From: a virus
Lineage: Duplodnaviria; Heunggongvirae; Uroviricota; Caudoviricetes
Length of the DNA stretch: 11,683 bases
Virus record (IMG/VR): IMGVR_UViG_2663762839_000001
Coordinates: 1 to 11,683 of that record
Reading direction: 5' to 3' (one strand)
Part shown: positions 2,607 through 7,047 of the stretch, one piece after another
How the letters are laid out: every line of letters starts with the position of its first letter
Position numbering within the stretch: position 1 is the first letter of the stretch
Program-made: the position numbers and the translations under genes
The notes under the pieces: generated by a model
Database searches by the model: none
The model's input: the letters and a program-made list of their open reading frames with translations, nothing else
Told to the model about the DNA's origin: nothing

Positions 2607-3068
2607 TCAGAATGGCGTTTCATCGTCGAATGGTGGGCGTTGGTCAAAATCATCAGGGGTATTATATAACTCCCATCCCGGCGCGGATTGTGTTGTGTGG
2701 CCCCTGCTGGCTCCGCTTGCTTTGACTGATTCGGCCCGCTTCCCGCCGGGGCGTACCGTTCTGGCGCTGATCACGCTGTCGGCTACTACCTGATAACCTT
2801 GCTGTGTACCGCCATCCTTGCCCGTCCACTGATTGATCTGCATCGCTCCGGCAACACTGACTAAATCGCCTTTAACGTGTCCTGCCAGTGCGTCGGCCTG
2901 TTTGCCGAATGCCACCACGCCCAGCCAGAAAGTAACCTCTCCGCCCTCTGCTGCATGGCAGGGCAGTGCCACCGCTAACCGTCCCATTGCCATGCTTGTA
3001 CCGTTTGCTGTGGTACGGGTCTGGGGATCTGCCACCAGCCGCCCGTATGCTGAAATTTGTGCTGTCAT
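2607..3068 (-). CDS. ssb: Single-stranded DNA-binding protein (SSB), 153 aa
   Basis: OB-fold SSB pattern (LVADPQTRTT..NG..MAMGRLAV...FWLGVVAFGKQAD...GDLVSVAGAMQINQWTGKDGG) and acidic C-terminal tip ending DDETPF, comparable to E. coli SSB DDDIPF. GAGGAA Shine-Dalgarno; ATGA overlap with the upstream gene at 3065-3068. Confidence 0.85.
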   Translation of the reverse strand: MTAQISAYGRLVADPQTRTTANGTSMAMGRLAVALPCHAAEGGEVTFWLGVVAFGKQADALAGHVKGDLVSVAGAMQINQWTGKDGGTQQGYQVVADSVISARTVRPGGKRAESVKASGASRGHTTQSAPGWELYNTPDDFDQRPPFDDETPF

Positions 3069-3367
3069 AGATATTTCCTCATGTAGTCACTACCTCCGGG
3101 GATAATTTTCATTTCTTCCCTTAAAGGCCACTGCTCCGCCATTGCTGCGGTCGAGTGATTCCCGTCATCACGTCCGGCCTGTGCTGCCGTCCAGTGTGTT
3201 GCATATTCTGTAAATCCAATTTCTGCTGGCTGCCTCATCCAGTGGGCGATCATCCTCAAGGTCATTTGCAGGCTTTGGGTGTCGCCCTGTAATGCGCGTT
3301 TGTCAGTAAACCCCTTCAATGCTTCACGCTCCTGATAGGTCATTTTCTGGCTGGTTTCTGTATTCAT
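3065..3367 (-). CDS. Hypothetical protein, 100 aa, first gene of the ssb operon
   Basis: ATG at 3367-3365 with AAGGTGG upstream; uninterrupted ORF; stop overlaps the ssb start. No recognisable family. Confidence 0.5.
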   Translation of the reverse strand: MNTETSQKMTYQEREALKGFTDKRALQGDTQSLQMTLRMIAHWMRQPAEIGFTEYATHWTAAQAGRDDGNHSTAAMAEQWPLREEMKIIPGGSDYMRKYL

Positions 3368-3420
3368 TGCCCACCTTCGTTATAAGCTACCCCCCCCATA
3401 GAATCTTTTTGGGGGTGTAA

Positions 3421-3582
3421 TATCCCTACCAATCCCTACTAACTGTCTCAGGCCACGAATGGCAAGGCTTTCAGACTGGTAGGCATTCAATTTTGTTGCC
3501 CTACATAACCCTACTTATCCCTACTAAATCACTTCAACGGCATTTTGCTGCCTGTTTTATTTGGTAGGGATATGTAGGGATA
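3421..3582. repeat. Iteron cluster: seven copies of the core CCCTAC (TATCCCTAC in the best copies), five direct and two inverted, phased at 10 bp; candidate operator array or replication origin
   Basis: Direct cores at 3424-3429, 3434-3439, 3499-3504, 3509-3514, 3519-3524; inverted GTAGGG at 3564-3569 and 3574-3579. Within each group the spacing is exactly 10 bp. CTTATCCCTAC (3514-3524) and GTAGGGATAAG (3574-3584) form an 11-bp perfect inverted repeat. Confidence 0.6.
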
Positions 3583-4142
3583 AGTGCCGCCGTAAAAGTT
3601 TCAATCACATCACTCTGCCCGCTCTCCACACCGTAAGCACGGGGCATGAACTCCTCAGCCTTCTCGTTATAGCCAACGTTGGTCTGCGCTCTGCCGTTAA
3701 TGCTTCTCGTCAGGTAGCTGGCTCGGTACTCTTTTGCTGCTGATTTTATGGCGCGTGAAAACTTATTGACGGAAAGCGGTTTACCCAAACCGTGATACTC
3801 CATAAACGCCAGATAAAGATGATAAAGATATGTCCTCGGCTCTGGCTGGCCTGCCCATGTACCTCCGCCCATCATCATGCCTTTGGGTTCGTTCATGAAA
3901 AAAAGCGCCGCACACATATCGACAACCGGATCCGTGCCGCGTTTAACCTCTAGCGCCTCCTGCGAATCGCGCTGCTCTAGTAATAGTGCTTTTGCTTTGT
4001 TCTGGTCGGCAAAGGTGGTTAGCAGGTGGCGGATAATCACCGGGATTTCTCGCCTGATTTTTGCTGTTAAATCCGGGTCTTTGTCTGCGTCTGATACCGG
4101 GTTATTAAACGGGAATACCCGTAGCGTGACATTGTCGTTCAT
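3534..4142 (-). CDS. P4-family primase/helicase C-terminal-region-like protein, 202 aa; either a stand-alone domain protein or a 5'-truncated remnant
   Basis: Motifs LRVFPF..DPDLTAKIRREIPVIIRHLL and RTYLYHLYLAFMEYHGLGKPLSVNKFSRAI resemble, from memory, the conserved C-terminal region of phage/plasmid P4-type primases. ATG overlaps the upstream stop (ATGA at 4139-4142) with GAAGGTG upstream. The 3' end runs through two inverted iteron copies. Confidence 0.45.
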   Translation of the reverse strand: MNDNVTLRVFPFNNPVSDADKDPDLTAKIRREIPVIIRHLLTTFADQNKAKALLLEQRDSQEALEVKRGTDPVVDMCAALFFMNEPKGMMMGGGTWAGQPEPRTYLYHLYLAFMEYHGLGKPLSVNKFSRAIKSAAKEYRASYLTRSINGRAQTNVGYNEKAEEFMPRAYGVESGQSDVIETFTAALIPTYPYQIKQAAKCR

Positions 4143-5263
4143 TGCACTGGCACCTTCAGAGGGATCACCGGCACAAAGCCGGGATGCGTAATGGCATTAC
4201 GCCGGATAATGTCCGCGTCACGCGCCGCGTTATCAAACCAGGTCGCCGCCAGCACCAGCGCGGGTAAAACCTCATCCGGTGTGCGCTGAATGATCCGTGC
4301 AGACTGTTCAAGGCGCGTGTTGATATCCGCATTCAGATCTGCTTTCACCCGGCGCAGCGCCAGAAACAGCGCATCGCTGGTTGTACGGGACAACTCCTTA
4401 TCAATTGCCGTATTCAGTGTGTCGCGAATGTCAGTCAGTTCTTCCCACGTCGGCAGGTCAACCGTGTTTTTCACCGCCGGTGCATTGTTCAGTGCCGGAT
4501 GCGTGACGGAAGGCCAGCAAGTGCTCTGCGCAGGTGTTGTTGCCTGCCCCACTGCGGCATTCTGCATCACCGCGGAAGTTGTTAGCGCAGGCACCCGCAT
4601 CCCGGGAGGCGCATCCTTAAACGAGACCGTAATCTCGCCTTCAGCCTTCTTCGGCGCAGCCTGAACTATCTGATACGGATTGTATCCCTGAGCAGAAACG
4701 CCTGTACCGTACGCCCCATAGCCACCGCCCCCCCACTGAGTCGCATTGGCTGCAACCACCGTGTCGCTGGCACCATCAGTAAACCATTCAATAATCGGCT
4801 TCAGCTTGTCCCACATATCCTGAAACCACTTAACAACCGGCCCCCAGTTATTGATCACCATCCCCAGCGGCGACCAGGCAAAAACTTTCTTAAGGAGTTC
4901 CCAGCCAGCCTCAAAATAAGGACCAATGGTTTCCCAGAGTTTCTTAAAATAAGGTCCGACAACATCCCAGTTAGTGATAATTAATCCCGCAGCCAGGGCT
5001 ATCGCCGTCGCAATCATGCCAATCGGCGTCATCGACATGATCCTGCTGACAATACTGATGGCACCGCCAACGCCCATCAATCCCAGTTTCAGAATCGCAA
5101 GACCGGCAGCAAGCCCGACGACGCCGCGAATAACCCGGGGATTTTCATCCGCAAACTTCGTGAATTTTTCCCCCAACTCCCCCAGCCATTGCGTGATATT
5201 TTTGGCGTCACCAGAAAATGCGCCGCCAATAGCCGCAAGGCCGTTAGTTGCGGTCCCCGTCAT
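4139..5263 (-). CDS. Tail tape-measure-like protein (paralog or fragment), 374 aa
   Basis: Hydrophobic, Trp-rich segments (MTPIGMIATAIALAAGLIITNWD, WELLKKVFAWSPLGMVINNWGPVVKWFQDMW) parallel the central region of the 7937..9925 tape measure (MSPVGLITALAAGIALLWEDY). Start sits about 40 nt downstream of an intrinsic terminator; Shine-Dalgarno spacing is short. Confidence 0.5.
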   Translation of the reverse strand: MTGTATNGLAAIGGAFSGDAKNITQWLGELGEKFTKFADENPRVIRGVVGLAAGLAILKLGLMGVGGAISIVSRIMSMTPIGMIATAIALAAGLIITNWDVVGPYFKKLWETIGPYFEAGWELLKKVFAWSPLGMVINNWGPVVKWFQDMWDKLKPIIEWFTDGASDTVVAANATQWGGGGYGAYGTGVSAQGYNPYQIVQAAPKKAEGEITVSFKDAPPGMRVPALTTSAVMQNAAVGQATTPAQSTCWPSVTHPALNNAPAVKNTVDLPTWEELTDIRDTLNTAIDKELSRTTSDALFLALRRVKADLNADINTRLEQSARIIQRTPDEVLPALVLAATWFDNAARDADIIRRNAITHPGFVPVIPLKVPVQ

Positions 5264-5304
5264 TGCCTCTGGTCAGATACTGCCATTTAGTAGGCTCCAG
5301 AAAG

Positions 5305-5329
5305 CAAAAAACCCGCCGGGTGGCGGGTT
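5305..5329 (-). terminator. Rho-independent terminator (minus strand) downstream of the 79-aa membrane protein gene
   Basis: Minus-strand RNA reads AACCCGCC-ACCC-GGCGGGTT followed by TTTTGCTTT: an 8-bp GC-rich stem, 4-nt loop and U-tract, read directly from sequence. Confidence 0.7.
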
Positions 5330-5345
5330 CATTATTGAAGTTTCA

Positions 5346-5585
5346 TTACTGCTTGTTTGCTTCTAACGCTTCAGCTATTCGGCGAAGATACTCATTGTTT
5401 TTAAATGAAACCATGATGCACTCAAAGAATATTCGGCAAAATACAGCACATAACAAAAGCACTAAAGCGCCAGCAGCCTTCCCATTAACAAACGTTATAA
5501 TGGCGGCAACAACCAGAAGTAACATTGTGATGCCATACAGAACGTTGATGATTTTTGGAGTTATTAATTTATCAAATCCGAACAT
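5346..5585 (-). CDS. Small integral membrane protein, 79 aa, two predicted TM helices (moron gene)
   Basis: ATG with AAGGAA upstream; two hydrophobic stretches (IINVLYGITMLLLVVAAIITFV and AAGALVLLLCAVFCRIFFECIMVSF); about 38% GC by hand count over 5341-5590 versus about 55% in a flanking tail gene; own -10 element and terminator. N-terminal FDKLITPKIINVLY is tentatively reminiscent of DUF4282-type small membrane proteins. Confidence 0.65.
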   Translation of the reverse strand: MFGFDKLITPKIINVLYGITMLLLVVAAIITFVNGKAAGALVLLLCAVFCRIFFECIMVSFKNNEYLRRIAEALEANKQ

Positions 5586-5614
5586 GCGACAAATTCCTTA
5601 TCGTGAAAGTAGAA

Positions 5615-5650
5615 GTATCACATTATAATTACGAGTGATTAATCAACAAT
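5615..5650 (-). promoter_or_regulatory. Putative sigma70 promoter for the 79-aa membrane protein gene
   Basis: Minus-strand perfect TATAAT (plus 5627-5622) with a TTGTTG -35-like hexamer (5649-5644) 16 nt upstream; sits at the 3' end of the upstream gene and the intergenic spacer. Confidence 0.4.
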
Positions 5651-5980
5651 CTTTTTGCATGGAAAGGAACCGATGATTTTCGGCGCATCCATGCTGTTCT
5701 GCAGCAGTTGGACATTCAGGAATCGCGTTTCGGTACCAGGGCGACGAATGTATTCAAAGCCGTAGTTGTTACCGTCTTTGGCAGGCATAAGCCCCATGTC
5801 TACTTTCAAACCATTGGTACCCAGTTCGGTGATTTTTTGAGAGGTAACTTTTTCACCGTTGATTGTCGATAACTCGCCCTGGTTTGCAACCATAGTGTAG
5901 CCACCGCATTTAACCGTGAAGCCATCCGCCCACGCGCTGCACGCAGAAAAGACAGCTAACAGAAAAATAATACCCCTCAT
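5639..5980 (-). CDS. Exported protein, 113 aa, signal peptide with possible lipobox (FSAC) or signal peptidase I site (AWA-D)
   Basis: N-terminus MRGIIFLLAVFSACSAWADG; two further Cys (VKCGG, FPCKK). ATG with AAGGGGA upstream, only 3 nt after the stop of the 353-aa tail gene. Confidence 0.65.
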   Translation of the reverse strand: MRGIIFLLAVFSACSAWADGFTVKCGGYTMVANQGELSTINGEKVTSQKITELGTNGLKVDMGLMPAKDGNNYGFEYIRRPGTETRFLNVQLLQNSMDAPKIIGSFPCKKIVD

Positions 5981-5983
5981 TGC

Positions 5984-7045
5984 TCATCCCCTTTGCAAAG
6001 CCGATTGCGTATACAGATCCGCCGCGCCACGCGCTTCGCACATCATATCCATGTACCACGCCTGGCCCCTTGTATCGCCAGTGTACATAATCCCGCGCAC
6101 AATATAAACGCCATCTGTTGCGATGCTGGCAGGTTGTGCTGTTGTGCCGCTGAGCGTGATATTACCGTCCGTGTTCTGGTCGGTGATCTTCCCACCAGCC
6201 ATCGCAATATCGTTGTTCGACAACGCGGTGCGATATACGGAAGCCTGATCCAGTTGAATGAGCCCATTAACCCGGATGTTCGGATTAATAAGCGCGCGGA
6301 CGTTTACGCCGTTGCCGATAGTCTGCTGCGGCATGCCGATAAGCCCGGTGGCGCTGTTGAGCACAATCGCTTCATGAACATATTCGTTATTCGCCACCAT
6401 CTGGCGTTGACCGTCCACAAATTGCCATGTTGCGCCACATTGTCCGGCCACGTTATCCATAAGATGCCGTGTCATGCCGAACAGCACCCGCCCTCGAGGG
6501 TATACGGTAGCAGGCATTTCAGGCGTCAGTCCTTCGGTCGCGCCTTTGGCCTCAAAGTCTTTCATCAGCGCACGGTTCACATCAGCGACCGTGTAACCGG
6601 CAGCCAGCGTCTGTGAGGTTATACTGGTGGCAAATGCCAGATCCGTATCTGCTGCCTGAATCAGGACATAGGAATCAATAGGGCTGTCTTTTCCTGTGAC
6701 CGAGTAGCGAATTTCTCCGCTGAAAATCAGCCCGTAGTTGCGGCCATCACTCTGGCCCACATCTGCCGCGTCGACTTCGCGCACGGTCCCGACGTCGCTT
6801 GCCGCCACCTCCGGCGCGATACCGTCGTAACCGGCAATCAGCCGCACTTTCGAAAATTCCTTCCCGGTGATTCGGTTCACAGTATCTGCCAAGAGGTTAT
6901 AAATTTTGATAGTCCCTACCCGGGACGCGCTGCTGATGTTGAACCAGTCGATCGTAAAGGTGACTTTGAAATCACTTAGCCCAATTCCCTGACCGTTCCC
7001 GTCCACAAGCTGCACCTCTAAATGTCTCATCCAGTTCTGTGACAT
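5984..7045 (-). CDS. Phage tail-tip/baseplate-associated structural protein, 353 aa (family not assigned)
   Basis: Long ORF with GGAG Shine-Dalgarno, coupled (2-nt gap) to the upstream 100-aa gene, third gene after the tape measure; beta-rich, Gly/Asn/Thr-rich composition typical of tail proteins. Function inferred from position only. Confidence 0.55.
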   Translation of the reverse strand: MSQNWMRHLEVQLVDGNGQGIGLSDFKVTFTIDWFNISSASRVGTIKIYNLLADTVNRITGKEFSKVRLIAGYDGIAPEVAASDVGTVREVDAADVGQSDGRNYGLIFSGEIRYSVTGKDSPIDSYVLIQAADTDLAFATSITSQTLAAGYTVADVNRALMKDFEAKGATEGLTPEMPATVYPRGRVLFGMTRHLMDNVAGQCGATWQFVDGQRQMVANNEYVHEAIVLNSATGLIGMPQQTIGNGVNVRALINPNIRVNGLIQLDQASVYRTALSNNDIAMAGGKITDQNTDGNITLSGTTAQPASIATDGVYIVRGIMYTGDTRGQAWYMDMMCEARGAADLYTQSALQRG

Positions 7046-7047
7046 GC

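Follow-up and report, generated by a model that had tools for sequence, protein, structure and literature searches.

Short repeats that lie between a primase-like ORF and an SSB gene could mark a replication origin or a regulatory site, and on a viral contig one may also ask to which element they belong. The locus considered here is an array of CCCTAC repeats in an 11,683-bp stretch of DNA (the window), which is IMG/VR virus record IMGVR_UViG_2663762839_000001 and the entire contig of a draft assembly (CDRI01000217.1). The initial annotation, made from the sequence alone, proposed either an origin bound by the adjacent primase-like protein, as in P4-type replicons, or a multi-site operator for the ssb operon. 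With a probability of roughly 0.85, we conclude that the array is the remnant of a vegetative replication origin, which belonged to an enterobacterial phage-inducible chromosomal island (PICI), a phage satellite, that occupies thrW and encodes a primase-helicase of the P4 alpha type.

The array spans positions 3424–3579 and consists of seven exact CCCTAC cores and one degenerate GTAGGC, set in 10-bp units. Five cores are on the + strand (3424, 3434, 3499, 3509 and 3519) and two on the − strand (3564 and 3574), with a start-to-start distance of exactly 10 bp inside each group. In first-order Markov simulations modelled on the window (n = 300), no hexamer occurred more than six times in a 162-bp span, a count that was reached once, compared with seven in the window. 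The cluster of five direct and two inverted copies first reported is thus confirmed by coordinates and simulations, with some corrections of detail. Seven is the right number of exact copies, but the degenerate, inverted eighth (GTAGGC, 3479–3484) had been overlooked; its position is conserved in relatives. The 10-bp register is exact, although it is simply that of head-to-tail 10-bp repeat units. The 9-mer proposed as the unit, TATCCCTAC, is found in four of the seven CCCTAC copies, whereas the remaining three share the core alone. The inverted repeat is perfect but is 12 nt long rather than 11 (ACTTATCCCTAC at 3513–3524 and GTAGGGATAAGT at 3574–3585). A single further CCCTAC is present in the window, at 6914. 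All genes around the array lie on the − strand: a 202-aa ORF upstream and, downstream, a 100-aa hypothetical gene (3065–3367) followed by the element-encoded SSB (2607–3068; Pfam SSB, 1e-14). The array is 57–160 bp upstream of the first of these. Two other identities were considered and rejected: Rfam yielded no match to a known structured RNA anywhere in the window, and a DnaA-box reading of TTATCCCTA is two core positions off TTATCCACA, with the TTAT prefix in some copies only.

Genome comparisons revealed that the window has two sources. Positions 3000–4116 match at 99% identity a segment carried by approximately 70 of 5,426 complete E. coli genomes, and the same array DNA is present in other Enterobacteriaceae too. 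In the E. coli matches, the array is directly 3′ of a gene for an 813-aa ‘phage/plasmid primase, P4 family’ protein. The reference used here, from E. coli strain YZ22MPE6 (L001), is an island of approximately 12 kb between tRNA-Thr (thrW, next to proA) and the yagU side. From thrW, it encodes an integrase, HTH regulator, antA/B, DUF4222, Icd-like protein and primase, followed by the array, the 100-aa gene, SSB and cargo, with all genes on one strand and a pRiA4b-ORF3 protein among the cargo. The window holds just the right-hand 4.1 kb of such an island. Its own cargo includes, downstream of SSB on the − strand (1952–2653), a 214/233-aa protein that has an HEAGH motif but no match in Pfam, as well as a pRiA4b ORF-3 family protein (478–1020, − strand) whose L001 counterpart has the same accession as a protein of EcCIMP1, an island discussed below. 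From 4117 on, the window matches tail genes of SfV/SfI-type Shigella phages, beginning where the ‘DNA circulation’ gene meets a baseplate gene. Within the phage part, the top E. coli matches take in 5268–10930 as a single block, while 4117–5267 separately matches SfV-type phages; content shifts again past 10930, with a Lambda_Kil-family ORF at approximately 11025–11177.

SfV/SfI-type phages integrate at tRNA-thrW, the site used by the island (PMC3636060), and because both elements use this site, tandem insertion followed by deletion would be the simplest history. The junction at 4116/4117 is in frame, joining nine codons of the SfV-like baseplate gene (4116–4142) to primase residues 644–812. 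The start ATG of this chimera overlaps the stop codon of the upstream 374-aa ‘DNA circulation’ ORF (ATGA), so that it could be translated with the phage tail operon. A 39-mer across 4116/4117 had no exact match in GTDB species-representative genomes, and the phage/primase junction was absent from all 5,426 complete E. coli genomes examined. The only carriers of the chimeric protein were the source contig and one Logan assembly; the junction and the 86-bp deletion described below rest on these two assemblies, possibly of the same sample. Rather than a single replicon that encodes a small primase-like protein, the window is a composite of two tRNA-Thr-site elements, of which the prophage part is itself mosaic or rearranged. 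The main value of the analysis lies in this corrected annotation.

The intact initiator is informative about what the 202-aa ORF once was. The 813-aa protein contains Zn_Ribbon_Prim, Toprim_3, D5_N and DUF5906 (the SF3-helicase region) domains and a C-terminal Pox_D5 domain, and aligns from end to end with phage P4 alpha at 39% identity (E = 3e-174). Pox_D5 is the only domain detected in the window ORF, residues 70–162 of which match PDB 1KA8, the C-terminal winged-helix domain of P4 alpha (E = 5e-9). The primase remnant comprises the last 169 residues of the parent (644–812), corresponding to a linker and the winged-helix origin-binding domain, which is intact except for the last residue and the tail. 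The ORF is therefore primase-derived, as first proposed, but it is no stand-alone protein: it is a chimeric, frameshifted stump of the 813-aa primase-helicase.

In L001, the origin is complete. It covers approximately 240 bp and has 12 iterons in two mirror-image units, ‘2-1-3 / 3-1-2’, in each of which the triple set and the single opposed iteron are separated by an A/T-rich stretch. In the orientation of the window, these iterons read + + - + + + - - - + - -, with centre-to-centre distances of 10, 45, 20, 10, 10, 45, 10, 10, 20, 48 and 8 bp. The mirror symmetry extends to an 80-nt imperfect inverted repeat, with arms at 12451–12530 and 12560–12639 and 29 nt between them. A check of repeat density bore out the clustering: against the one CCCTAC outside the array in the window, 11 of the 13 copies in 25 kb of L001 fall inside the origin, leaving two strays. 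The plan is common to Klebsiella elements L002 and L003. Among 23 loci whose positions were mapped, most have one layout, while L024–L026 and L030 are shifted or permuted. Nearly all of approximately 90 related loci, drawn from IMG/VR and GTDB genomes with the comparative weight mostly on IMG/VR contigs, carry 8–13 NNCTAC copies within approximately 300 bp 3′ of the primase stop; a search of genome contigs with a primase-alignment profile gave six loci. The iterons are all intergenic in every intact relative, the first following the primase stop by 16–21 bp, and the window array abuts the primase remnant. The order primase–ori–hypothetical gene–SSB is identical in the window island, EcCICFT073 (a PICI discussed below) and the Klebsiella relatives, while the product of the first downstream gene varies in length, from 69 aa in L003 and 85 aa in EcCICFT073 to 100 aa in both the window and L001 and 126 aa in L002.

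One relative was assembled as a separate circle. The 22.9-kb ‘plasmid’ of K. pneumoniae (NZ_CP033626, L002) is a whole island encoding an integrase, HTH, antA/B, Icd-like protein, primase, array, SSB, PerC, a tape-measure-like gene and pRiA4b-ORF3. The antA/B and HTH genes are present twice, approximately 18.2 kb apart, probably through assembly overlap. The circle suggests that the culture contained the island in an excised form that was replicating, and so lends weak, indirect support to autonomous replication driven by pri-rep and ori.

When the window is placed on this plan, its left unit can be followed site by site. Iterons 1–2 (ATATCCCTAC and CAATCCCTAC; 3420–3439, + strand) are direct 10-bp units that make up the outer ‘2’ set, and their position and orientation recur in all intact relatives. 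The degenerate GTAGGC (3479–3484, − strand) is the single opposed ‘1’ site, conserved in position in L001, L002, L003 and EcCICFT073. It is followed by the A/T-rich spacer ATTCAATTTTGTTG (3485–3498), the mirror counterpart of ATAAAAATATATAT, an A/T-only segment in the right unit of L001, and by three direct iterons with 10-bp spacing, the ‘3’ set (iterons 3–5, 3499–3524, + strand). The spacer at 3525–3563 holds the dyad centre of the ancestral palindromic origin, the counterpart of the 80-nt repeat of L001. Beyond it, the inverted iterons 6–7 (3564–3585, − strand) are the sole remainder of the right unit. The window thus reads + + - + + + - -, with distances of 10, 45, 20, 10, 10, 45 and 10 bp. 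Opposed iteron sets with an A/T-rich region are seen in L001, L002, L003 and EcCICFT073 and partly in the window, where the left unit and its moderately A/T-rich spacer survive. On the ssb side, the array is flanked by a conserved C8-N13-G5 box (CCCCCCCCATAGAATCTTTTTGGGGG, 3390–3415), which sits between the array and the ribosome-binding site of the 100-aa gene. The box is kept in L001–L004 even where the iteron sequence differs, and is not recognizable in EcCICFT073; its potential RNA hairpin is unexceptional (folding z = -1.3).

The iteron sequence varies together with the initiator. All 14 intact loci of the CCCTAC class encode a winged-helix region with ‘RAIKS..EYR.. YLTR[SQN]INGRAQTN’, whereas loci of the NTCTAC class have ‘AM[KRN]’ (once ‘AVK’) and ‘TR[KRGTE][VIF][KRN]G..QTN’ in the same region. 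L002 is particularly informative: its primase shares 85% identity with the L001 protein, but its iterons are GTCTAC/CTCTAC and the residues in its helix and wing are similar to those of the distantly related protein of EcCICFT073. To judge from the homology with 1KA8 and Rfx (PMC2777425), the co-varying residues probably fall in the recognition helix and wing. The pattern is the one expected from initiator–iteron recognition, and we take it as support rather than proof because the close relatedness of all CCCTAC loci leaves few independent switches. The iteron specificities, of which there are at least two (CCCTAC and NTCTAC), follow a small number of winged-helix residues, which suggests orthogonal replicons and a recognition code.

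Alignment with L001 showed that 86 bp are missing from the array between window positions 3573 and 3574. In L001, these 86 bp hold four iterons and 14 bp of pure A/T (GTAGGGATAA-AAATATAT-ATCCCTAC ... GTAGGGCA), so that the A/T-only core ATAAAAATATATAT is lost from the window with them. The deletion end points in L001 are identical 12-mers, GTAGGGATAAGT, at 12575 and 12661, 86 bp apart; because these bound the deletion, it has the signature of slippage or iteron–iteron recombination. The copy of the 12-mer at 3574–3585 (− strand) is the scar. The primase gene is also damaged at its 3′ end. The ancestral stop codon (TGA; TCA on the + strand) at 3601–3603 has been put out of frame by a CA insertion (2 bp) at approximately 3606–3609 (− strand), identified by alignment with relatives, and the ORF consequently runs on for 24 codons through two iterons. 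The 24-aa tail is found in the window and in none of the relatives. The two copies first noted inside the 3′ end of the ORF are indeed there, but they owe that location to the insertion that abolished the ancestral stop. As it stands, the chimeric ORF (3534–4142, − strand) comprises baseplate codons, primase residues 644–812 and this tail.

Drawing on the repeats, the homology, the conserved layout, the co-variation, the deletions and the published replication data for EcCICFT073, we propose the following sequence of events. In the intact element, the winged-helix domain would read the 10-bp-spaced iterons, and initiator oligomers would assemble on the two opposed units. The A/T stretches would then melt, allowing the SF3 helicase to load and the TOPRIM domain to prime, and the SSB of the island, encoded two genes downstream, would coat the unwound strands. 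In the lineage of the window, the tail gene of an SfV-like prophage was joined by a deletion to codon 644 of the primase gene, with loss of the primase and helicase domains; slippage between iteron 12-mers deleted the 86 bp with four iterons and the A/T-only core; and a 2-bp insertion shifted the stop codon. For the window element itself, we infer binding, melting and loading, as we do the loss of function in this copy.

The array in the window is probably unable to initiate replication on its own, and the origin module appears to be dead or crippled. Since the chimera is so rare, we regard the array as a recent relic. Between seven and eight iterons and an intact origin-binding domain survive, and residual binding of a cognate initiator supplied in trans is possible. 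A comparable state was observed on the Salmonella plasmid pLG26p2 (L004), where the primase is cut to a 186-aa ORF with the binding domain only (6457–7017). The array there (6290–6460) has been shortened by iteron-to-iteron deletion, several iterons are mutated and there is no SSB gene downstream. The parallel is an independent one, and is more simply explained by the usual route of decay than by selection: iteron arrays decay by iteron-to-iteron deletion after loss of the initiator.

The same survivals raise the alternative that the shortened array is still cis-acting, either firing or titrating the initiator (incompatibility or interference) when a related island in the same cell supplies a cognate full-length primase in trans, with the remaining origin-binding-domain ORF as a possible competitor. 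One full ‘2-1-3’ unit is left, equivalent to a single ori1 unit of P4, the winged-helix domain of the 202-aa ORF is undamaged but for its last residue and tail, and a binding-domain-only ORF with a shortened array arose independently on pLG26p2. We nevertheless consider this unlikely. The A/T-only core and four iterons are gone, the short form occurs in no relative with an intact primase, and the presence of the chimera in just two assemblies suggests recent decay over maintained function. The iterons of pLG26p2 are themselves degenerating, and P4, according to its annotation, needs a second cis site, crr.

An extension of this idea would cast the chimeric ORF and iterons as a decoy: by titrating or blocking the initiators of CCCTAC-type satellites that enter the cell, they would allow one satellite to exclude another. 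The origin-binding domain would then be produced from the translation start of a phage late (baseplate) gene, and pLG26p2 would be a case of convergence. We rate such a role as very improbable.

The second function first offered for the array, a multi-site operator for the ssb operon, fared worse than the first. The array would in this case serve mainly as a transcriptional operator or roadblock for the hypothetical, ssb and cargo genes, acting on read-through or on a local promoter. Its location 57–160 bp upstream of the first downstream gene and the conserved C8/G5 box between it and the ribosome-binding site are compatible with such a role, and initiators that bind beside their own operon often autoregulate. 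However, a crude consensus scan of both strands found no sigma-70-like promoter in or next to the array, either in the window (3250–3750) or in L001 (12250–12800), leaving the operator claim unsupported. The array layout is also constant while the first downstream gene varies in length, the same layout in P4 ori1 is annotated as a replication origin, and published data tie the homologous region of EcCICFT073 to replication (PMC6092414). A scan for terminators gave one weak hairpin (3538–3550) on the + (non-coding) strand, at chance frequency. The operator reading is accordingly a very poor candidate for the main function of the array; a secondary roadblock or read-through role is possible, and nothing points there. 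That the array is a chance or slippage-made short repeat with no sequence-specific function is hardly credible, since only the small unit size speaks for it, while none of 300 simulations reached the observed clustering, the repeats keep their number, order, orientation and spacing across primases of approximately 50% identity and in P4, and the core sequence changes together with the binding domain.

The vegetative-origin reading draws its strongest outside support from EcCICFT073. The origin of a PICI is located directly 3′ of the gene for its replication initiator and has two sets of iterons around an AT-rich region (Fillol-Salom et al. 2018, ISME J, PMC6092414). The pri-ori segment of EcCICFT073 maintains a temperature-sensitive plasmid at 44 °C, and the delta-pri and delta-ori versions perform significantly worse (PMC6092414). 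The iteron sequences are not printed in the main text or supplements of that paper, and our match to its Fig. 2a rests on the EcCICFT073 sequence itself (CFT073 1,383,996–1,384,283). The island is of the same type as EcCICFT073, with an integrase, AlpA-type HTH, Icd-like protein, DUF4222 and primase transcribed in one direction. In EcCICFT073, the array is likewise 3′ of pri-rep and is followed by a small unnamed gene, SSB and PerC, the last of which is found in relatives of the window element. The two arrays have a common CTAC core and an A/T-rich stretch between opposed sets, and the primases are approximately 52% identical in their shared C-terminal part. Because layout and gene order match in this way, the window array is homologous, in position and in architecture, to an origin that has experimental support. 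There are differences too: the iterons of EcCICFT073 are (G/A/C)TCTACC rather than CCCTAC; we found 11 sites, its left ‘triple’ set having just two, against 12 in the intact relatives of the window; and the initiator has 584 aa, compared with the 813-aa long form with Zn-ribbon and TOPRIM in the island of the window. The window copy, unlike EcCICFT073, is truncated and has lost its A/T core. By analogy, origin function may be carried over to the CCCTAC type from EcCICFT073 and P4.

L001 has the features of a PICI: a length of approximately 12 kb, an integrase, HTH regulator and pri-rep, genes on one strand and its own site. That attachment site is shared with EcCIMP1 of E. coli MP1 (L093), a characterized PICI at the proA-yagU/thrW site. 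EcCIMP1 and L001 have identical accessions for the HTH regulator and the terminal cargo proteins and the same int–HTH–antA/B order, but their primases are unrelated, that of EcCIMP1 being of the TOPRIM+DUF927 type and that of L001 of the P4-alpha type. It appears that the replication module has been exchanged as a cassette between thrW islands.

The comparison with P4 was made from its RefSeq annotation and sequence (L096), in which crr (4291–4590) is directly 3′ of alpha and ori1 is at 9086–9809. P4 alpha is a homologue of the full-length initiator, and the 1KA8-type winged-helix domain is common to both. The type-1 repeats of ori1 (9310–9413) have the same orientation as the right half of the L001 origin (12565–12666), - - - + - - in each, and near-identical spacing (10, 11, 22, 43 and 10 bp in P4; 10, 10, 20, 48 and 8 bp in L001), the left half of L001 being the mirror image. 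The repeat sequence itself differs, TGTTCACC in P4 against CCCTAC or NTCTAC in the island and its relatives, and so does the arrangement: P4 has two cis sites approximately 4.7 kb apart, whereas the island has one, directly 3′ of the initiator in the position held by crr in P4. No second iteron cluster was found in the 25 kb of L001 scanned beyond the two stray CCCTAC copies, and sid, psu, delta and epsilon were absent from the annotated genes of L001, L002 and L003. On this comparison, the intact PICI origin resembles a head-to-head fusion of two units of the P4 ori1 type, placed where crr lies in P4. The proposal of an origin bound by the adjacent P4-type primase is supported by the EcCICFT073 homologue, the homology with P4 alpha, the 1KA8-like domain and the ori1 layout. 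The label of P4-type replicon holds for the initiator, but the element is a PICI-type island. The island probably operates in the manner of the P4 replicon, to which it is related by descent. It is nevertheless distinct from P4 in its repeat sequence, single cluster and gene content, and its genes and attachment site place it among the PICIs. The 2018 description called the organization of the PICI ori unique among bacterial replicons and did not draw the link to P4 (PMC6092414). The correspondence of each origin half with the ‘3-1-2’ unit of ori1 would imply that the replicons of P4 and of alpha-type PICIs descend from a common ancestor.

The arrangement also has a more distant counterpart. 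The origins bound by papillomavirus E1 and SV40 large T antigen have short, opposed initiator sites around A/T-rich DNA, and such an arrangement at origins of SF3 initiators suits the head-to-head loading of two helicase rings; the likeness to the island origin is an analogy of mechanism only. As far as they are described in PMC6092414 (from Ubeda et al. 2007), the origins of SaPIs and other Gram-positive PICIs differ from the island origin in host lineage, iteron sequences and Rep proteins. An origin of the kind found here has been described already, and the window adds a new, defective member without overturning current understanding. What the comparison contributes is modest: a fixed 12-iteron plan for alpha-type PICI origins, built from two inverted units like P4 ori1, the match of that unit with P4 ori1 itself, and the two iteron specificities.
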